Made by a program: the position numbers and the translations under genes. A stretch of DNA of 64,000 bases from Blastocatellia bacterium (GTDB lineage: Bacteria > Acidobacteriota > Blastocatellia > RBC074): NCBI GenBank assembly GCA_043775925.1, contig JAYVRW010000170.1, positions 6,578-70,577 on the forward strand. The letters are read 5' to 3'. Each line of letters starts with the position of its first letter. Position 1 is the stretch's first letter. Below, in pieces: positions 4,748-52,153 of the stretch. The notes beneath the pieces are model-generated. The model had not been told where the DNA came from and did no database searches. It saw only the letters and a program-made list of their open reading frames with translations.

Positions 4748-4767
4748 TAGCTCTGCTCATCTGCACA

Positions 4768-4812
4768 AAAAAGAGCCTGCTGGCATTTATCGCGAGCAGG
4801 CTCTGATTTTTC
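4768..4812. terminator. bidirectional Rho-independent terminator between convergent CAP-domain gene and wzt
   Basis: GAGCCTGCT...AGCAGGCTC stem flanked by A-run upstream and T-run downstream. Confidence 0.5.
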
Positions 4813-4832: not shown

Positions 4833-6119
4833 TTACGCGAGGCTGGAATCTGCCGAGCGAACTTCAATCGTTTCAGTCGGTGGCAGCAAACGCCATTGTT
4901 GCGGTGTATAGAACATCCCGCGCACAGATTTTCCAGGCAGCACTTTCAGGATGTACTGACGCGGTTTCAAATCATACGGCGCAACGGAACCGCGCTTACT
5001 GAAGATGCCGTCTACTTTATAGATTCCCGGCGTTAATCCGAATTCGCTGCAATCGAATTCAATAATGCCTTCGTCGGGCAACACTCCAATTTCCGGGCCG
5101 TTAATTGCTGTGGTCAAGTGCGAATACAAACGATCATCCGGTGAGTAGAAGAGCATTTCAAAAATCGGGTCTTGGATGGCGCTGTAGGTTTTGTAATGAA
5201 TCCGCGCAATCAATTTATCCCCAGTCGAAATGGTATCCGTTTCCTGTCCATCGCCGTTGTGGAATTTCACGCTGATAATTTCAGCGTCCTGACCATATAA
5301 TGAAGTCTTCGTTTCAATCGCTAAGCCGGTATTATTCTGCGCGATTTGTGCAGTTGATTTTTTCGCAAACAACACTTCATTGTAATAAACGCTAATTACT
5401 TCCTGGGGCTTACCGCTGGCACGAACTTCGCCTTTTGACAGGAAGACTACGCGATCACAGAGACGCTCAACGGCAGGCATATCGTGCGAGACGAAAGCGA
5501 TGGTCATTCCGTCACGTCGCAGTTCTTCGATACGCTGCTGACATTTGCTTTGGAAATTCGCGTCACCGACGGCGAGGACTTCATCAACTAATAAAACGGA
5601 AGGATGGATATGCGCGGCGACGGCAAATCCTAAACGAACATACATGCCCGAAGAGTAGCGTTTGACAGGTGTATCAATGAATTTTTCCATTTCGGAAAAC
5701 GCGACGATCTGATCAAATTTTTTGGCAACTTCGGCTTTCTTCATGCCCATAATTGAGCCGTAAAGAAAAATATTTTCGCGTCCTGTTAATTCAGGATGGA
5801 AGCCTGCACCGACTTCAATCAACGAAGCCACGGAACCGTTGACTTCGATTTTGCCTTCGGAAGGATAAATAATTCGCGCCAGCAATTTTAGTAATGTACT
5901 TTTCCCTGAGCCATTCGGACCAATAAATCCAATGGTTTCGCCACGTTTGATTTGTAAATCTACCTCTTTCAGCGCGAAAAATTCATCGCTTCCGGCTAAG
6001 CCTCTGGAGCTTGGCAACAGGTTTTTGGTCACCCGCGCCAATTCTTCACGAATAGATTTTGAACCCAAGCGGCTGAGGCGATATTTTTTGGAAACTCGAT
6101 CTAAGACAACAATACTCAT
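4833..6119 (-). CDS. wzt: polysaccharide/O-antigen ABC exporter ATP-binding protein (Wzt/TagH type) with C-terminal substrate-binding domain
   Basis: Walker A 'GPNGSGKST', signature 'YSSGM', Walker B '[11 protein letters not shown]'; start set at ATG 6119 ([13 protein letters not shown]); the ORF-track N-terminal extension was rejected. Confidence 0.85.
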
Positions 6120-6207
6120 AAAACTGTTTCGAGTTTCGAGTTTTGGGTTTCGAGTTATGAGAGACCTTCTTACCTCGAAACTCGAAATCCGAAAACCCGA
6201 AACTAAT
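6120..6207. repeat. intercistronic imperfect palindrome built of TTTCGAG/TTTCGGG heptads (PAL-1 family, copy 1) between wzm and wzt
   Basis: Left arm gtttcgagtttcgagttttgggtttcgag pairs with right arm ctcgaaactcgaaatccgaaaacccgaaac. Confidence 0.6.
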
Positions 6208-7131
6208 TTAAACCAGATCTGCGAACTCGCGTTCCAGATGTTTGAAATATTTATACGAACCCCAGAGTAGGAACAGTGAAATCGCTGTCGCGATTCCAAG
6301 TAATTTCAGGTCGGGAGTTAAACCCTGTACGACGCACTTGCGATAACTGTCAATAATCACAGCCATCGGATTTAGCGTCATATAGGCGGTATAAAGCGCT
6401 TCGCTTTTGTCTCTGACACGCGAGGCTGGGTACAAAATCGGAGTGGCAAACATCCAGATTTGAATGACCAGTGGCATCGCATAGCGAACGTCACGATACA
6501 GTACGGTGAAGGCTGACAGCAAAAATCCCATGCCAACTGTAAAGATTAACTGGATTAGCATGACTGGAACGATAAAAATGACGTTCCAATTAATCGTGAC
6601 CTGATCGTGATAGAAAATCAGCAACCCGATAAAAATTACCGATGCCACGAGAAAGTCAAAGAAAGCCGCCAGCACACAAGACAGTGGAATAATTTCACGC
6701 GGGAAATAAATCTTGGTGATGATGTAAGAATTCGTAATCAGGCTGGGAATAGCAAACGACATGGAAGTCGAAAAGAACGTCCACGCCAATAATCCCGTGT
6801 AGGAAAATAACGCGTAAGGCATTCCGGTATCGCCCTTCATTCCGGCAAAATACGAAAAGAACAAGCCAAACACCAGCATCAGCGAAAGTGGTTGCAAGAC
6901 TGCCCACACTGCGCCCAGCGCCGTTTGTTTATAGCGAATTTTTAATTCACGTTCCGTTACTAATTGCAGCAACTCGCGGTGATTAATCAATTCTTTGAGA
7001 TGGGAAAAAGTGCTATTACTCCACTCAACTTGTCCCTTTAACTCCTGATCCGAATGCTCGATGTCGTGAGGTGGGGGGGTAGTGAGGAGAGCCTCTGATG
7101 TGACTTTGTTGTCAACTGCTGTAGCAGGCAT
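6208..7131 (-). CDS. wzm: polysaccharide ABC-2 type exporter permease (Wzm/TagG type)
   Basis: Six TM segments; '[20 protein letters not shown]' and 'KIYFPREI' ABC-2 motifs; start set at ATG 7131 with AGGAG SD (the ORF-track extension was rejected). Confidence 0.8.
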
Positions 7132-12816: not shown

Positions 12817-12893
12817 GCGCCTGTAGCTCAGCTGGATAGAGCACTAGACTTCGAATCTATAGGTCGGGGGTTCGAATCCCTCCGGGCGCACCA
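12817..12893 (+). tRNA. tRNA-Arg (anticodon UCG)
   Basis: Cloverleaf read by hand: acceptor GCGCCTG/CGGGCGC, anticodon loop CTTCGAA, T-loop TTCGAAT, CCA encoded. Confidence 0.9.
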
Positions 12894-15209: not shown

Positions 15210-15217
15210 GAATTTTC

Positions 15218-15312
15218 AGACAGGATTTACAAGATTTTTTGCAGGATGAACAGGACTTACGTGCAAGAATATGACTTGTAAATCTTGTCTTAAAATCTTG
15301 TTAATCCTGTCT
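15218..15312. repeat. MITE/REP-like element with 21-bp terminal inverted repeats AGACAGGATTTACAAGATTTT / AAAATCTTGTTAATCCTGTCT (PAL-2 family, copy A), 8 nt after carA stop
   Basis: Arms are reverse complements with 1-2 mismatches; the internal segment has a partial extra arm copy; a related copy lies at 35821-35880. Confidence 0.6.
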
Positions 15313-15349
15313 AAAAAAAACTCTTCCCCGAAAATCTTTTTCCTGAAAA

Positions 15350-17563: not shown

Positions 17564-18937
17564 TTACAAATCGTCAAAATAAACCACGTGCGAACTCCGC
17601 CAAATGTTCGCAGGAATTGATCCCCGTTGCGCTGAAGTCAGCAGGATTTTGAATTCGTCGTCGGCTAAGGCGGGGAGGCGTTGCAATAAATTTACAGGAG
17701 CATCTTCCAGCTTTTCCGAAACAAAGGGCGTAACACGCGCTAATTGTTTGAGCATCGCGTACCGATGATCGTTGTCGCGTCCGAAGTGTGAATCGTATTC
17801 GCTCAGCATTAACCGCACGTCCGCGCCTTCGTCGAGAAAATGTGTCAGCAGGCTGGCGGCTAAGGTCACTGCTTTTTCAAAAGCAGAAGTTCGCAGTTCA
17901 CTGTTCGCAGCACCTTCCTGCTTACTATCCTCTGCTCCCTGCTCCCTGTTCCCTTCATAAGTATCCAAAGCAATAGTCACGCGCCAATCGTCATCTCTGG
18001 TAAATTCGCGCACCATTAATTTTGAAGCTTTGGCGGTGGCTTTCCAATCAACATAACGCGGATGATCGGTCGGTGTGTAGTGGCGAATCGCGTACAAATC
18101 ACTGCCGCTCCCCTTTTGTTCGCTTTCCATTTGCCCGTGGGTCAGCGGCAACAAATGATAGAAATCATCCAGCGGGAGCGGGTTTGGATATACAGTGACT
18201 TCTCCACTGGCTTCGACGTAGCGGCGGCGTTCGACAAATCCAAACGGAAATCTGGTAGTGATCGTAAATCCGCGCACTGGAAAAACTCCGCGCTGATCGA
18301 AGGTGCGGGTGATGCTGGCTTTGGCTTTGGCTCCGGCGGGAACGATGGCGAAGTGCGCTAAATCTCCGATGGATTGATCGGGAATTTTATTTGCCTTGCG
18401 AAGCGCAAAACGATTTTCTTTATCGGTTGCGGCGACAACCAATGAAAATGAAGGGAGGAAACGTTTTTGATTCGTGATGGTAGCTTCAAGTTGTGCTGGT
18501 TCACCGGCGAAAATATGGTCGGGAAAACGCAGCGCGACGCCTAAATCTCCAATGCTCAAACGCGAAGCGACACCAGAAATAATCATCGTTGCCATCAACG
18601 CCGCCAGCACCATGTAAAGCAAATTATTTCCAGTGCTAACCGAAGCAATCGCTACGATGAGGATGAAAGCGATGAACATCCATCCTGCGCTCATCACATT
18701 CATCGCAAGGCGTGATTGCAGGAATTCCATCTGAACATTTTTGGCAAGGCGCGGAACGACATACAGTAAAATACACAACGCCAAACCAAGCGCAATTTTT
18801 GAAGCTAAGGAAGCAACCTCAAAATCACCAGAGCTGGTGGCGGCAGCCGCAACCAATGCTGATCCAATCGCCCCAAAAATCAGGATGGACGAGACGAACA
18901 GGAAGCGGAGAAATTTTTTATCCTTCAGGAATTTCAA
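17564..18937 (-). CDS. DUF58-family protein (MoxR-associated) with extended multi-TM N-terminus
   Basis: DUF58 core (~residues 150-400, 'VYPNP'); several N-terminal TM helices; start uncertain (track start is TTG). Confidence 0.6.
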   Translation of the reverse strand: MKFLKDKKFLRFLFVSSILIFGAIGSALVAAAATSSGDFEVASLASKIALGLALCILLYVVPRLAKNVQMEFLQSRLAMNVMSAGWMFIAFILIVAIASVSTGNNLLYMVLAALMATMIISGVASRLSIGDLGVALRFPDHIFAGEPAQLEATITNQKRFLPSFSLVVAATDKENRFALRKANKIPDQSIGDLAHFAIVPAGAKAKASITRTFDQRGVFPVRGFTITTRFPFGFVERRRYVEASGEVTVYPNPLPLDDFYHLLPLTHGQMESEQKGSGSDLYAIRHYTPTDHPRYVDWKATAKASKLMVREFTRDDDWRVTIALDTYEGNREQGAEDSKQEGAANSELRTSAFEKAVTLAASLLTHFLDEGADVRLMLSEYDSHFGRDNDHRYAMLKQLARVTPFVSEKLEDAPVNLLQRLPALADDEFKILLTSAQRGSIPANIWRSSHVVYFDDL

Positions 18938-20989: not shown

Positions 20990-22564
20990 TTACCACAATC
21001 CACGCGATCCAACTTTTACCAGCTTGGCATCACCATTGACCCAACCTTGCTTTTGCGTAGTCGAATGCTCGAAGTTCGGACTCCAATCACTAATTTCAAT
21101 TTGAATCCAGCCGTTCTGATCTTTACTAATCACCTTGTGTTTGGAGCCATTCGGGACAGCGCCAAGCTTGTCGAATTTTGGTCCTGGCCCGGAGCGCACA
21201 TTCAAATCCAAAGCCAGTACTTCAATTTGTTCACCAAAGATTTTCGGTGGCGATGGTTTGGGAACACTGATCGTAGGCAACGTTTTGCTTGTAATACGAT
21301 GTTGACGAGCATATTGATAGACACCAATTAAAGCCCCAAGAAAGATTAATGCTAAAGCTGCAACCGTAATTCTGCGCCACATCGGAGCCATAAACGAATC
21401 ATTGACTTCGGAGGTTTTCTTGATCGGGGCAGGGACTTTTTGCGTTGACGGAGCCGGGACCTTCGCCACTTTTTCCGGTGACGGTAAATCAACTACGAAT
21501 TTACTTTTTGGTAAAGCCGGAATCGTCGCTTCGCCGGGAAAATTAGAAGGAGCCTTCTGAGGCACAGATAAAAAATCCGGTTGCTGTGGTTTTTCTGGCA
21601 ATGACTGCGGCTGCGGCGTGACCACTAACGTTTCTTTAATTTTTGGTCTGACGCGAGTGGCATTATCGTCCACAGCTTCCGCCAAAGGAGAGCTTTGAAA
21701 GTTAATAGCTGTCGCAGCTAATTCATGCCAGAACTCAACGACAGTAGCATAGCGTTCAGAGGGGTTATCCGCAGTAGCGTGACGCAAGACCTTCAATAAA
21801 GTTTCGGCGTATGGCTCTGACGCAAGGTTTACGGGCAAAGCAGTAATTGGGCGGCGATTAAACTCAGATGGTGTCCGTCCGCTGATGACAGTGTAAAAAC
21901 TCTTGGCTAATGAATAGATGTCAGCAGAAGCCGTTAAGCGTCCGATGTGATTGGTTGATTCGTCAGGATGATGCTCAGGCGGAGCGTAAATATCAGCTCC
22001 GACGCGAGTAATTTCCGCCGTATCATCACCGGAAATTTTTGCGACTCCAAAATCGGCCACTTTGAGAACTTTCTGATCGCGGCTCAGTAGAAAATTATTA
22101 GGTTTTAAATCTCGATGAATGACGCCTTTGCTGTGTGCGTAAGCCAGAGCTTCGCAGGCTTGCTTGAAATACGTCAGTCCGGTGTGAAGGTCAATCGCAT
22201 TGCCTGTACGATTGCGACAAAATCGCAGTAAATCTCCACCGGGCATATACTCTAACGCCAGATAATGAAAATGGACTCCGTTCAAATCAGCCGCCGTGCC
22301 GTGCCCTAAGCGCAGGATAATATGCGGATGACGAACAGCATCCAGAGCTGTAGCTTCATTCTGAAAATTTTCTAGTAGGGTACGCTCAAGATCAGCTTCA
22401 GGTGTGCCTTGCAAATGTGTATTGAGAGCTTTAATGACAACCTCTTCACTGCTTCGCTGGCGGTCTCGTGCGACAAAAATCTCCGCGTAGCTACCCAGAC
22501 TCAAGCGGTCTCGCACCTCGTAACGATCATCTACCAAACTGTTTTCGAGTTTAAGTTGGGGCAT
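20990..22564 (-). CDS. Hanks-type Ser/Thr protein kinase with TM helix and extracellular SH3-like domain
   Basis: 'HRDLKPNNFLL', 'DFGVAK', 'APPE' kinase motifs; TM 'ITVAALALIFLGALIGVY'; C-terminal SH3b-like. Confidence 0.85.
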   Translation of the reverse strand: MPQLKLENSLVDDRYEVRDRLSLGSYAEIFVARDRQRSSEEVVIKALNTHLQGTPEADLERTLLENFQNEATALDAVRHPHIILRLGHGTAADLNGVHFHYLALEYMPGGDLLRFCRNRTGNAIDLHTGLTYFKQACEALAYAHSKGVIHRDLKPNNFLLSRDQKVLKVADFGVAKISGDDTAEITRVGADIYAPPEHHPDESTNHIGRLTASADIYSLAKSFYTVISGRTPSEFNRRPITALPVNLASEPYAETLLKVLRHATADNPSERYATVVEFWHELAATAINFQSSPLAEAVDDNATRVRPKIKETLVVTPQPQSLPEKPQQPDFLSVPQKAPSNFPGEATIPALPKSKFVVDLPSPEKVAKVPAPSTQKVPAPIKKTSEVNDSFMAPMWRRITVAALALIFLGALIGVYQYARQHRITSKTLPTISVPKPSPPKIFGEQIEVLALDLNVRSGPGPKFDKLGAVPNGSKHKVISKDQNGWIQIEISDWSPNFEHSTTQKQGWVNGDAKLVKVGSRGLW

Positions 22565-22790
22565 AGTTTATGCTGTCATCCTGACTACATAAATTCGACA
22601 ACAAAATTCTTAGACGCACATTCTCTCACAAAACGTTTTCTATTCTTCACAAGTTTCTAAAAATGGATAGATTCTCTGGAAAATGGGTTTTGAGCTTTAG
22701 CTTTTGGTCTTTGAATATGTGCATTAATAACTTGTTGTATGGCATCTCTACAAAGACCTAAGTCCAAAGGTCAAATCCCGAATCTTTTAT

Positions 22791-24074
22791 TTAACTTAGA
22801 ACCCGCAAAACAATGGGAATATCTCTAGTCGAAGTTTGTTGGCGAATGTCATGCAAGGCGGCTTGCATTTTGCTTTCACGCACTTGATGGGTCAGCAGCA
22901 CGATAGTCGCTACGCCTTCTTTGGTGACGCCTTTTTGAACCAGTCCCAGCAGGCTAACGCCATGCTCTCCGCAGGCGAAGCCAAGATGACCAATCACGCC
23001 AGGGACATCTGCCGTTTCTAACCGGATATAATAAGCATTGGTAGTCTCTTCGATATTCGCAATTTCCGTCGTTACTGCATTCATCGCAGGTTGAAAATAA
23101 CGAGCAAAATCAGGTAGTTTCAACGCACTGACGAGATTGAAAATATCTCCGACGACAGCGCTGGCGGTGGGGAATTGTCCCGCTCCAGGGCCGGAAAGCA
23201 TGATTTCACCAACTGCGCTTCCATTGATAAAAATTGCATTGTTGACGCCCCCAACTCCGGCGAGTGGATGGTGCAATGGAACCAGCATCGGATGCGCACG
23301 TACATCAATTTGATTCTTGCCTTCGACAGGTTGGGCTAAGCCAATCATTTTAATCCGATAACCAAATTCCCGCGCCAGTTGAATGTCGAGATCACTTATT
23401 TTTGAGATACCCTGACGATAGACTTTTCCAACCTCTACTGGAGATTGGAAAGCGAGAGAGGCCAGAATCGTGATTTTATACGCGACATCATTGCCTTCCA
23501 CATCGTCCGTCGGATCAGCTTCGGCAAAACCTTTGGCTTGCGCTTCCTGCAAAGCATCGGCAAAAGTTTTTTTCTCCTGCTCCATCATCGTCAGAATGTA
23601 ATTTGTGGTGCCATTGACGATGCCTGCCACTTTTGAAATTCGATTGGCCTGCAAGCCGCGCTGCATCGTGGAAATCAGTGGAATCCCCCCACCCACAGCG
23701 GCTTCAAAAAATACGGTCACGTTGTGACGATTCGCCAGCTCGAAAATCTCTGGCCCGTGTTTGGCGATCATTTCTTTGTTGGCGGTAATGAGATGCTTGC
23801 CGTTGGTGATGGCGCGTTTGACGACCTCATAAACGGTTCCGACACCGCCTGCGACTTCGGCTAAGATTTCAATTTCAGGATCGTCAGCCAACTCAAAGGC
23901 ATTGTTTGTGACTCTAAAGGGTGCGAGGTCGAGATCGCGCGGTTTGCTGAGGTCACGAACAGCGATAGTGCGAATATCAAATTGTGGATTGTCACTGAGC
24001 AATTTAACGACGCCAGTGCCGACCGTACCGAGACCTAAAAGACCAATAGTTGTTTTCGTGGACATAACTTTCAT
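22791..24074 (-). CDS. hom: homoserine dehydrogenase with C-terminal ACT domain
   Basis: 'IGLLGLGTVGTGV' NAD-binding; catalytic region; ACT domain. Confidence 0.85.
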   Translation of the reverse strand: MKVMSTKTTIGLLGLGTVGTGVVKLLSDNPQFDIRTIAVRDLSKPRDLDLAPFRVTNNAFELADDPEIEILAEVAGGVGTVYEVVKRAITNGKHLITANKEMIAKHGPEIFELANRHNVTVFFEAAVGGGIPLISTMQRGLQANRISKVAGIVNGTTNYILTMMEQEKKTFADALQEAQAKGFAEADPTDDVEGNDVAYKITILASLAFQSPVEVGKVYRQGISKISDLDIQLAREFGYRIKMIGLAQPVEGKNQIDVRAHPMLVPLHHPLAGVGGVNNAIFINGSAVGEIMLSGPGAGQFPTASAVVGDIFNLVSALKLPDFARYFQPAMNAVTTEIANIEETTNAYYIRLETADVPGVIGHLGFACGEHGVSLLGLVQKGVTKEGVATIVLLTHQVRESKMQAALHDIRQQTSTRDIPIVLRVLS

Positions 24075-24830: not shown

Positions 24831-24851
24831 GTGCAGAAAAGTCCTGAAATA

Positions 24852-24890
24852 AAAAAGCGTCGAATGAGAAATCACTCGACGCTTTTTTAT
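24852..24890. terminator. bidirectional Rho-independent terminator
   Basis: AAAAAGCGTCGA-loop-TCGACGCTTTTTT between convergent genes. Confidence 0.6.
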
Positions 24891-24922
24891 TTGTTGTGCG
24901 ATTTCATCAATCGCGATCTCAG

Positions 24923-29526: not shown

Positions 29527-31677
29527 ATGGCATCCAGGCGAAAAAAGAAAAACAGTCTAACCGGTCGGCATGGCTTCATTGCCTGCTTACTAATTGTCTG
29601 GATGGGAGTCATCATCTGGAGGCTGGCATATTTACAAATTATGCAGCCGCAGAACTATGTGAGTACCTCAGTGGCGCAACGCGAAAAAACTGAGAAAGTT
29701 GAAGCTTTTCGGGGTGAGATTGTAGATCGTAATGGGACGGTCTTAGCCAGCAGTACGGACACTGATTCTGTTTTAGCTGATCTTTATCAGGTCAAAGAAA
29801 ATACGCAGGCACAGATCATCAAGACTCTGGCTCCGATGTTGAATACGAGTGAAAATGATCTCCAGCGCAAGTTTAATTCCGGCGGCAAAGCTCCTGTTCT
29901 TGCGAGGCAGGTTGATATTCAGGTCTCACAGAATATTCGAACTTCACTGGAAGCGGCAAAGCTTTCCGGTATTAAGGTTGTTAGAGAAACCCAGCGTCGT
30001 TATCCGAATGGAAGTTTGGCTTCTCACCTTTTGGGTTATGTGAATGGGGCAGAGCAAGGTGTTGGAGGCCTGGAATTTCAATTAGATAAGCACCTCAGAG
30101 GTCAGGATGGCAAAAACATTTATGAAAATGATGCAGTAGGAAAATCATTTGCCAGAGTTGAAAAAAATGCCTTCGCCGGAGCGCGAGTGGTTACTACGAT
30201 TGATACCGGATTGCAGAGTCAGGTTGAATCTGCGCTGGCTCAGGCTTTAGAGGAAACCAAAGCCGATAGCATTAGCGCCATTGTGATTGATCCGAAAACT
30301 GGCGAAGTCTTGGCGATGGCCAACGCACCAACTTTTGATCCGGCGGCTCGCTGGAGTGGTGGCGATCAAGAAGCTTATGTGCGCCGCAACCGCGCCATTG
30401 CTGATATTTACGAACCCGGCTCCGTTTTTAAGATCGTTGGGTATTCTGCCGCCATTGAAGAAGGCCTGGTTAGTCCTGACGAGAAAATACGTTGCAACGG
30501 CTCAGTCACGATTGGCAATCGGATTATCAAAGACGAACACTGTCATGGTGAGCTGACCTTATCACAGGCTTTGGCGAAATCCTCCAACACGGGCGCAATT
30601 TACGTGGCGAGAAAAGTCGGCAATGAGAAGATGGCGGACTACATTTCGCGGTTTGGATTTGGTCATCGGACAGGAATTGATTTACCGGCGGAAGCGGCTG
30701 GATTAATTCATCCGCTTGAAAAATGGCAGGCTACTTCAATCGGTTCAATTGCCATTGGACACGAAGTTGGTGTGACGGCTTTGCAGGCAGTTTCTGCGAT
30801 GGCAGCCATCGGCAATGGTGGCGAATGGGTTAGGCCCCACGTCATCAAACAAGTTGTCACTGGTGATGCTGGTCAGCGAGTATTATGGGAGGCCCAACGA
30901 GAATCCCATCGTGTGATCAGTCCGCAAACAGCCACCACTATTACTTCAATGTTGGAAGGTGTAGTCGAGAGTGGAACGGCCAGACATGCCGTTCAACTGG
31001 GTGGTTATACCGTGGCGGGAAAGACCGGAACTGCCCAAAAAATTATTAGCGGTAGATATTCTGATAGTGCTTATATGGCGTCGTTTGCCGGATTCGTACC
31101 CGCCATCAATCCGCGCTTTGCAATTATTGTGACGATTGATAATCCAAAAGGTGCGCATCAAGGTGGACAAGTAGCAGCGCCTATTTTTAGTCGCATCGCA
31201 CAGGCTTCGTTGGTCGGTTATGGTGTCTTGCCCGACAACGAAAAAGCGAAACAGGGAATTGCAGAGTTGGAGACACGATACAAAGAGAAACCAGGCGATT
31301 GGAATTGGCAACCTGAAGCGACGCCGAATGCAACGCCGAAAACCAATCACCTGGTTGCTACTCCAAGTCTGAAACCAACGGTCAGGGCAAGCGTGAAACC
31401 AAGTGCGACACCTCCTTCAACGGTAAAGGTTTCAGCTACACCAAGGCTGAAGCTGCCGACCCCGCCACCTGTCAAGCCAACTGTGACGGTGAAAAATATA
31501 CCGGATAAACCAAAGCCGCAACCCGTTGTGAAGAGTGGGCCAAATGTTATAGGCCGAGGTTTGCGTGAGGTCGCAAGCATGTGCAGCCAGACCGGATTAA
31601 AGCTGCGTGCGATTGGCTCAGGCGTCGCTCGTAGCCAACATCGCCAGGGCGATACACTGGTGGTTGAGTTCCGATGA
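29527..31677 (+). CDS. ftsI: peptidoglycan D,D-transpeptidase FtsI (PBP3) with Pro/Thr-rich linker and C-terminal PASTA domain
   Basis: 'SVFK' (SxxK), 'SSN', 'KTGT' penicillin-binding motifs; C-terminal 'VIGRGLREVASMCSQTGLKLRAIGSG' PASTA-like. Confidence 0.9.
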   Translation: MASRRKKKNSLTGRHGFIACLLIVWMGVIIWRLAYLQIMQPQNYVSTSVAQREKTEKVEAFRGEIVDRNGTVLASSTDTDSVLADLYQVKENTQAQIIKTLAPMLNTSENDLQRKFNSGGKAPVLARQVDIQVSQNIRTSLEAAKLSGIKVVRETQRRYPNGSLASHLLGYVNGAEQGVGGLEFQLDKHLRGQDGKNIYENDAVGKSFARVEKNAFAGARVVTTIDTGLQSQVESALAQALEETKADSISAIVIDPKTGEVLAMANAPTFDPAARWSGGDQEAYVRRNRAIADIYEPGSVFKIVGYSAAIEEGLVSPDEKIRCNGSVTIGNRIIKDEHCHGELTLSQALAKSSNTGAIYVARKVGNEKMADYISRFGFGHRTGIDLPAEAAGLIHPLEKWQATSIGSIAIGHEVGVTALQAVSAMAAIGNGGEWVRPHVIKQVVTGDAGQRVLWEAQRESHRVISPQTATTITSMLEGVVESGTARHAVQLGGYTVAGKTGTAQKIISGRYSDSAYMASFAGFVPAINPRFAIIVTIDNPKGAHQGGQVAAPIFSRIAQASLVGYGVLPDNEKAKQGIAELETRYKEKPGDWNWQPEATPNATPKTNHLVATPSLKPTVRASVKPSATPPSTVKVSATPRLKLPTPPPVKPTVTVKNIPDKPKPQPVVKSGPNVIGRGLREVASMCSQTGLKLRAIGSGVARSQHRQGDTLVVEFR

Positions 31678-31683
31678 TTATCA

Positions 31684-31745
31684 GTTTCGGGTTTTGTGTT
31701 TCGAGGAAACCACGTAATTCGTTTTTCCTCGAAACCCGAAACCAA
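31684..31745. repeat. intergenic imperfect palindrome of TTTCGGG/TTTCGAG heptads (PAL-1 family, copy 2) between ftsI and murE
   Basis: gtttcgggttttgtgtttcgagg ... cctcgaaacccgaaac. Confidence 0.6.
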
Positions 31746-35820: not shown

Positions 35821-35880
35821 AGACAGGATTCACAAGATTTAGAACAGGATTTTTAGGATAAACCTTTGTTCATCCTGTCT
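35821..35880. repeat. MITE/REP-like palindromic element (PAL-2 family, copy B) in mraY-murD intergenic region
   Basis: AGACAGGATTCACAAGATTT ... CATCCTGTCT, 8 nt after the mraY stop; related to 15218-15312. Confidence 0.6.
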
Positions 35881-39470: not shown

Positions 39471-39593
39471 AAGGTAAAAGGCAAATATCAAAAAGCAAAG
39501 GGCAAAAGTTCGGCACTTTGTTTTAATAAAAAATGACGCAGCTTTCCAAATTAACTTTTTACTTTTGATATTTGTCTTTTGCCATTTGATTTT

Positions 39594-50476: not shown

Positions 50477-50627
50477 TTTGGTAAAACCTTTACTGCTGGA
50501 TAATGCAAGTCGTGAACTCGCGGACTTAGGAATGATCATGCAGGAAAGCCCGCACTGATAGTAAAGAAGGCGGCACGAGACTGGAAAAGTCTGGGGCCGC
50601 CTTAATCTCTTTCAAGAGTAATGGATG

Positions 50628-52068: not shown

Positions 52069-52153
<85 letters not shown>

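Follow-up and report, generated by a model that had tools for sequence, protein, structure and literature searches.

The window analysed here is a 64,000-nucleotide stretch of a Blastocatellia bacterium contig (Acidobacteriota) that carries, on its minus strand, the adjacent genes wzm and wzt. The wzm gene (6208-7131) encodes an ABC-2 permease (Pfam ABC2_membrane); its mechanical open reading frame (ORF) extends to 7332, and the start was placed at 7131 because the homologues are 307 aa long. The wzt gene (4833-6119) encodes an ABC ATPase of 428 aa (Pfam ABC_tran and Wzt_C), and its homologues are likewise 428 aa. The 88 nt between them (6120-6207, minus strand) are the exact gap from the wzm stop codon TAA (6208-6210) to the wzt ATG (6117-6119), and the whole of this intercistronic spacer is a hairpin element built of tandem heptanucleotides (heptads), which we refer to as copy 1.

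An earlier note on this sequence had described the gap as an inverted repeat assembled from heptads, and the heptads that it listed are present letter for letter. Tandem Repeats Finder (TRF) reports a period of 7 on the plus strand, with 4.4 copies of GTTTCGA at 6126-6156 and a facing array of 4.3 copies of CTCGAAA at 6174-6204. Between the arrays lies a non-repetitive centre (6157-6173, within GTTATGAGAGACCTTCTTACC) that has no match in any other fetched locus. Read in the mRNA sense (minus strand), the array at 6174-6204 adjoins the wzm stop and forms a G+U-rich 5' arm (GUUUCGG GUUUUCGG AUUUCGA GUUUCGA), and the array at 6126-6156 adjoins the wzt start and forms an A+C-rich 3' arm. The autocorrelation of the spacer is 0.57 at lag 7, compared with 0.13-0.36 at lags 3-6 and 8-13. 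For the motif TTTCGRGTTT, the window has 7 occurrences where 0.66 are expected, and none of 100 shuffles reaches this count. With up to two mismatches allowed, the two-heptad pattern GTTTCGRGTTTYGRG has 11 occurrences (1.06 expected), 10 of which fall inside copy 1 and a second element, copy 2, in the ftsI-murE spacer.

A long stem-loop had also been proposed for this gap, and folding of both RNA strands bears the proposal out as a prediction. The minus (mRNA-sense) strand of copy 1 folds at -32.4 kcal/mol (z -5.0) and the plus strand at -35.0 kcal/mol (z -5.8), while folding as DNA gives -20.1 on each strand (z about -4.7); none of these folds was matched by any shuffle. The mRNA-sense stem runs from 6204, 3 nt past the wzm TAA, to 6132, leaving 12 nt unpaired (CGAAACAGUUUU) before the wzt AUG. 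No Shine-Dalgarno-like motif stands in front of this AUG, where the sequence reads UUUUAUG. Since about half of all window genes are without an obvious Shine-Dalgarno motif, a contrast in this respect between genes behind a hairpin and other genes is uninformative.

By its architecture, copy 1 falls among the inverted heptanucleotide simple-sequence repeats. A 7-nt unit is repeated in tandem at least three times, a convergent complementary array able to form a stem-loop lies nearby, the element is intergenic with the end of the upstream ORF close by, and orthologous sites keep it in versions that vary in length and sequence. The units TTTCGAG, TTTCGGG and TTTTGGG contain no regular run of four G3 tracts, which places copy 1 outside the G-quadruplex subclass and within the wider heptad class. 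An identity as a CRISPR array was rejected, and Rfam gave no match at gathering thresholds, with E-values up to 10 yielding only sub-threshold eukaryotic miRNA-precursor hairpins. Coding of copy 1 was rejected as well, since Wzt homologues have 428 aa and begin at the position of the ATG at 6119. The mechanical ORF 4833-6299 carries wzt through the entire element to a TTG at 6299. This over-extension occurs because the heptad arrays are free of stop codons, and for that reason elements of this type could be taken into genes by automatic annotation.

The related element that the earlier note had placed near 31684-31745 was found at 31684-31742 on the plus strand. This copy 2 sits within the 73 nt that separate the ftsI stop (31675-31677) from the murE ATG (31751) and consists of GTTTCGG GTTTTGT GTTTCGA, a centre, and TCGAAAC CCGAAAC. 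Its stem begins 6-12 nt past the ftsI stop, and its RNA folds reach -29.3 (mRNA-sense) and -30.5 kcal/mol (antisense), with z of -5.2 and -5.5. Folds of the elements with DNA parameters were likewise significant (z -4.6 to -6.0). Only the heptads are common to copies 1 and 2. A third period-7 palindrome, in the murG-murC spacer (39471-39593, plus strand), is built of the unit GGCAAAA / TTTTGCC, with arms of 21 nt that are 90% complementary, a long centre of ~69 nt, a lag-7 autocorrelation of 0.49 and a fold of -32.3 kcal/mol (z -4.1). The window as a whole contains two TTTCGRG hairpins and one GGCAAAA-type hairpin. With further copies in existence and a stable predicted fold, neither of the two outcomes that the earlier note had named as fatal to its proposal, a lack of copies and a lack of structure, came about.

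To place these elements in a comparative frame, we consider the same spacers in relatives. The best named homologues of the window MurE and Wzt belong to 'Blastocatellia bacterium' genomes (Acidobacteriota), and the closest sequences are metagenomic (MurE 92% and Wzt 96% identical). The 88-nt TTTCGRG hairpin of the window wzm-wzt spacer corresponds to a 94-nt TTTCGAG/TTTTGAG hairpin in locus L207 (Wzt 96%) and to GGTGTYR / YRACACC hairpins in L208 and L209 (Wzt 88%; 86 nt) and L210 (Wzt 86%; 90 nt). Every hairpin-bearing version terminates in TTTT ATG. The spacer of L211 (Wzt 85%) is 12 nt long and has no hairpin, indicating that the hairpin is not needed for wzm-wzt expression. In the ftsI-murE spacer, TTTCGRG-type hairpins occur in L120 (MurE 92%), L122 (90%), L203 (75%) and L204 (74%), an (AGTGCTG)4 / (CAGCACT)4 hairpin of -53 kcal/mol occurs in L121 (76%), and a GGTCATT / AATGACC hairpin occurs in L206 (9836-9890), where the murE start has been called ~110 nt too far downstream. 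In L123, a 66% relative, ftsI and murE overlap (TGATG), with zero spacer. The murG-murC spacer contains a hairpin in all close relatives, with unit families that differ. Most of the orthologous hairpins have z between -3 and -12. The description of the element as species-specific was therefore wrong, since the same arrays and hairpins are found in the same spacers of close relatives, in many phyla and in viral contigs.

An alignment of four wzm-wzt spacers places a standard pair in 86.8% of cells. Changes on both sides were counted in 12 of 27 pairs, compared with 7.2 +/- 1.8 in shuffles, of which 5 in 500 gave at least 12; the count fell to 1-5 when the alignment partners were slid by 1-3 columns. 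As judged from this alignment, substitutions on both arms have preserved the pairing. The number of events behind the covariation is small, because the four sequences represent only two clades and tandem units change non-independently.

In the ftsW-murG spacers of L203 (16589-16716) and L121 (16802-16951), the called murG ATG lies inside the hairpin centre. These calls would translate the 3' heptad arm as an N-terminal extension (e.g. LETQNPKLETQNS); either the start codons are mis-called, or the heptad arms truly contribute coding sequence.

When one genome per species was scanned for three TTTCGRG-type heptads in tandem, at least 119 loci were identified. Among the matches listed are Bacteroidota, Acidobacteriota (many of them Pyrinomonadaceae), Planctomycetota, Verrucomicrobiota and Desulfobacterota, together with Cyanobacteria, Chloroflexota, Nitrospira and several Gammaproteobacteria, and many of these listed loci share the architecture of an array, a centre and a complementary array. 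Period-7 arrays occur at 38 per 100 kb among the matches listed, compared with 3.6 per 100 kb in 80 control loci, which were drawn by a repeat-blind metagenome scan with MurE that matched motifs shared by bacteria in general, and which comprise the moderately close L123 and 79 distant loci. The TTTCGRG pattern was also found in 42 viral contigs. Permuted units are at least as common there (TGTCTGR in 106 stretches and TTGCTRG in 72, compared with 42 for TTTCGRG), and only the mirror unit, with 9, is rarer. The recurrence of TTTCGRG across phyla therefore needs neither horizontal transfer nor a dedicated factor, and both were rejected as its cause. These results show that tandem heptads are generally abundant and that TTTCGRG is not a privileged sequence. 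A full-text literature search for these particular tandem heptads found no bacterial paper. Two of the viral contigs, both from IMG/VR, have arrangements of their own: L224 (11.8 kb) has four separate TTTCGRG arrays, and L226 has (GTTTCGG)3 and (CCGAAAC)3 around a ~95-nt centre that contains a (ATTTTTTT)n array.

Pairing of arrays is the minority state. Only 27 of 126 TTTCGRG arrays have at least two complementary units within 150 nt, so that unpaired arrays outnumber paired ones ~4:1. When the centres of 28 elements from the window and the fetched loci were compared, 26 were unrelated save for two trivial duplicates (one contig sequenced twice, and nested hits in L075), and the remaining two formed one related pair. 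That pair consists of the 24-nt centre of copy 2 (31705-31728, plus strand, GGAAACCACGTAATTCGTTTTTCC) and the centre of the murG-murC heptad hairpin of L203 (about 17807-17830), where 22 of the 24 bases recur inverted. The two elements lie in different spacers, and the heptads of their arms are unlike in number and in variants. The shared centre suggests that at least some elements have been duplicated or transferred. From the at least 119 loci across phyla, the low proportion of paired arrays, the mostly unique centres and the equal commonness of permuted units, we conclude that the primary unit is the heptad array and not a fixed element.

Where arrays are paired, their order is strongly biased. 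Relative to the GTTTCGRG array, the partner is downstream in 27 cases and upstream in 1, and an independent TRF-based pairing found the G+T-rich arm first in 40 cases versus 4 for TTTCGRG-like units and 18 versus 6 for other units. The order is the same whichever strand is read, and it is not a search artefact, because the search is symmetric with respect to strand. Two explanations fit. One is a selective filter, in which an A+C-rich arm beside the start codon would exclude NTG starts and G-rich Shine-Dalgarno-like motifs; since the element is a palindrome, this argument holds for either transcribed strand. The other is a directional mutational process, for example fold-back synthesis in which the nascent strand is G+T-rich.

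The genes flanking palindromic sites are co-directional in 17 cases, convergent in 3 and divergent in 3, a split close to that expected of intergenic regions generally, as judged from general knowledge and not from a control set. Operon-specific placement was rejected, as the context at the sites in other phyla resembles that of intergenic regions generally. Across 17 elements from other phyla (18 rows, with L111 represented on both strands), the relative stability of the sense and antisense folds was mixed, and selection on the RNA strand was rejected for want of any consistent difference.

Our preferred reading, to which we give roughly an even chance of being correct, is that copy 1 is a slippage-made inverted pair of heptanucleotide simple-sequence repeats with a unique centre and a modulatory effect at the mRNA level. 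Units of 7 nt are known to be slippage-prone, and the arrays probably arise and turn over by replication slippage. The complementarity of the arms may be upheld by selection for pairing, by fold-back template switching in which one arm serves as the template for the other, or by both. Copy 1 would be transcribed within a wzm-wzt mRNA as a stem of ~30 pairs. A ribosome ending wzm would then have to melt the outer stem, which, by analogy with REP (repetitive extragenic palindromic) elements, should slow wzm termination and would also expose the region beside the wzt start, which has no Shine-Dalgarno motif. The stem could in addition stop 3'-exonucleases, and ~30 pairs are in principle long enough for an RNase III substrate. 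Candidate roles named in the earlier note were an intercistronic processing or stability site that would tune permease:ATPase stoichiometry and a protein-binding site. Given where the stem starts and ends on the mRNA, a post-transcriptional effect of copy 1 is likely but unproven, and it would be modulatory and not essential, because L211 has no hairpin.

Several observations weigh against this reading. Slippage alone fails to account for the G+T-rich-arm-first order, and growth in place leaves unexplained the centre shared, at 22 of 24 positions, with an element in another spacer. The palindromes are not specific to operons, their context being about what is expected of any intergenic region. 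There is no G-U signature of selection on RNA, because the mRNA-sense fold is not the more stable one (-32.4 versus -35.0 kcal/mol in copy 1, -29.3 versus -30.5 in copy 2, and mixed in the others). A close relative, L211, does without the hairpin, and the covariation in the alignment could also reflect the swap-in of a different palindrome. Both the co-transcription of wzm and wzt and any effect at the RNA level are inferred.

The lack of a strand preference and the ordinary intergenic context keep very much alive the reading that the hairpins have no function. According to this explanation, slippage and template switching would have produced them in the same way, and they would be neutral or slightly deleterious junk without a regulatory role, tolerated in spacers only because 7 is not a multiple of 3. 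We regard this as possible, though with a chance clearly short of even. It is favoured by the variable presence of hairpins among close relatives, as in the bare spacer of L211 and at murE-murF, where the genes overlap by 4 nt in the window and in L203 and are separated by a hairpin of 104-113 nt in L121, L204 and L206. Decayed copies in L122 (z -2.6) and L204 (z -0.8), the excess of unpaired over paired arrays and the equal abundance of permuted units point in the same direction. However, the ftsI-murE, murG-murC and wzm-wzt spacers keep a hairpin in most relatives despite replacement of the unit, compensatory changes occur on both arms, and the strong arm-order bias requires either a directional mutational mechanism or a selective filter.

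A broader proposal would make heptad hairpins a general, unrecognised intercistronic class in bacteria, with the G+T-rich arm 5' on either strand. They would be generated by a directional process (such as fold-back synthesis on G+T-rich nascent strands or 3'-end repeat addition) and selected as Shine-Dalgarno-independent translational-coupling or mRNA-processing devices in operons of Acidobacteriota, Bacteroidota and other phyla. We consider this unlikely; if true, it would account for the long-noted excess of heptanucleotides in bacterial genomes.

It is very unlikely, in our judgement, that copy 1 is a mobile REP/REPIN- or MITE-like hairpin copied in trans, for example by a RAYT (a Y1 transposase of the IS200/IS605 type), with the heptad arrays as its terminal inverted repeats. 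Such an origin would suit the 24-nt centre of copy 2, which recurs in a different spacer and in opposite orientation in a genome whose MurE is 75% identical, as well as the presence of different hairpin families in the same spacers across genomes, as repeated insertion would give, and of arrays in viral contigs. However, the remaining 26 centres are unrelated apart from the trivial duplicates, the window copies have only heptads in common, and even the pair with a common centre is unlike in the length of the arms and in the variants of the unit. The arms begin GTTTCG, with neither a GTAG nor a CGTC head. The heptads aside, there is no family consensus, and neither copy 1 nor copy 2 shows a visible target-site duplication. 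No RAYT or Y1 transposase was found among the 10 small window ORFs tested or in the Pfam lists of called genes at the relatives' loci. Copy 1 was on these grounds rejected as a REP in the strict sense.

We give very little credence to a DNA-level site, in which the element would act as a cruciform or its heptad direct repeats would be bound by a nucleoid protein, a regulator or a recombination factor. The equal stability of both strands, the significant DNA-parameter folds and the independence of arm order from the strand read would be compatible with such a site, and tandem heptanucleotides in Geobacter metallireducens have been annotated as putative global-regulator binding sites (PMC2700814). 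A sequence-specific protein is nevertheless difficult to reconcile with units that differ between relatives at one site and between sites in one genome, copy numbers and arm lengths are variable, and no candidate protein was identified. An intrinsic terminator or attenuator within the operon, cutting read-through from wzm to wzt, is just as improbable and was rejected: although UUUU lies 3-6 nt behind a stable hairpin in both window copies, the terminator and promoter scan does not flag copy 1, the stem is long and A+U-rich, the short U-run does not abut it, a heptad hairpin is also present inside the essential dcw operon, and genuine window terminators differ, as does the canonical bidirectional one at 4767-4809 (A-run, G+C-rich stem and T-run) that ends the wzm-wzt operon between the convergent wzt and CAP-domain genes. 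Canonical-looking terminators of the same composition also occur at 24847-24892, again between convergent genes, and at 50556-50614.

The window contains further palindromes of other kinds. A second family, with units AGACAGGATT / ACAAGATT and a period of ~9-10, occupies intergenic positions 15212-15317 and 35821-35880; one of its hairpins folds at -39 kcal/mol and has a 22-nt tandem repeat, and another fills the mraY-murD spacer. Similar sequences occupy dcw spacers in L204 (mraY-murD and murG-murC). An inverted repeat at 22685-22779 has 38-nt arms that are 74% complementary and a weak 7-8 nt periodicity (GGTCTTT / AAAGACC type), and lies within the 226-nt spacer of the minus-strand ORFs 20990-22564 and 22791-24074. 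Upstream of ORF 411-1910, a near-perfect palindrome at 290-377 has 29-nt arms that are 90% complementary and folds at -51.9 kcal/mol; its periodicity is 5 or 10, not 7. An Rfam scan located tRNA genes at 12817-12890 (plus strand) and 52072-52153 (minus strand), which are unrelated to the heptad hairpins.

The Blastocatellia operons offer a compact comparative system, in which the wzm-wzt, ftsI-murE and murG-murC spacers keep a hairpin while its 7-nt unit is replaced. Should the hairpins influence termination, coupling or decay, they would constitute a fast-evolving control of relative expression inside essential operons for division, wall synthesis and polysaccharide export, in a soil phylum that has received little study. 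Should they be neutral, they would be a clear case of slippage and template switching building long palindromes, and also a caution for annotation, given that heptad arms are absorbed into called ORFs and N-terminal extensions. Heptanucleotide repeats are, as reported, the most over-represented long simple-sequence repeats in bacteria, with an origin and role that are unsettled; slippage of the polymerase has been put forward as their source (Mrazek 2007, as cited in PMC4679880).

Among known systems, REP, BIME and REPIN elements of Enterobacteria and Pseudomonas resemble copy 1 in being intergenic imperfect palindromes that often lie in operons (malE-malF, for example) and form mRNA stem-loops. 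In Escherichia coli, a ribosome that is terminating stalls at REP stem-loops lying no more than 15 nt from the stop codon, and the upstream gene then yields less product; REP stems also shield the mRNA upstream of them against 3' exonucleases (Liang 2015 and Newbury 1987, both as cited in PMC12306157). Unlike these elements, the hairpins described here have arms of tandem heptads and mostly unique centres, with no GTAG or CGTC head and no RAYT seen in a limited search. The term REP-like, which the earlier note had offered as one candidate for copy 1, consequently stands as an analogy and not as a classification: the mode of action is likely to be REP-like, by that analogy, without membership in the REP family.

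In G. metallireducens, four or five tandem heptanucleotides occur at dozens of sites, some of them inside genes, that were annotated as putative global-regulator binding sites, and elements of the consensus MTYCTGA were drawn looping back onto the other strand (Aklujkar et al. 2009, PMC2700814). The number of tandem heptads is similar to that in our elements; the units differ, and binding of a regulator there is an interpretation only. The TAACTGA repeats of Beggiatoaceae, Cyanobacteria and Bacteroidetes are located directly upstream of start codons without ribosome-binding sites (PMC4679880). These repeats and the cyanobacterial short tandemly repeated repetitive (STRR) sequences are, like the present elements, short intergenic tandem heptamers that are scattered across phyla and often precede starts without canonical ribosome-binding sites. 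In contrast to those mainly direct arrays, of which the TAACTGA set includes only one inverted repeat, an inverted hairpin-forming pair is the defining feature here. The GGTCATT unit of the L206 ftsI-murE spacer is a rotation of TTGGTCA, which we take to be the cyanobacterial STRR2 unit; the STRR unit sequences were reportedly given by Mazel et al. in 1990.

The closest parallel is provided by the GGGAATC heptamers of Xanthomonas, which occupy ~185 loci per genome, ~90% of them intergenic and near the upstream ORF, and form 70-75 convergent inverted pairs capable of stem-loop formation (Rehm et al. 2015, PMC4692102). They persist from one species to another while their length and sequence vary, and their type, single array or inverted pair, is preserved (PMC4692102). 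Tandem 7-nt units, convergent pairs, proximity to the end of the upstream ORF and conservation at orthologous sites are shared with the elements of the window. Unlike the GGGAATC repeats, the present elements use the unit TTTCGRG, in which the lack of a G-tract rules out G-quadruplex or i-motif formation, reside in an acidobacterial (Blastocatellia) host, fill the entire stop-to-start spacer and have their unit replaced outright between relatives. Copy 1 thus represents a new unit, in a new phylum, of a kind of repeat that is already known and poorly understood.

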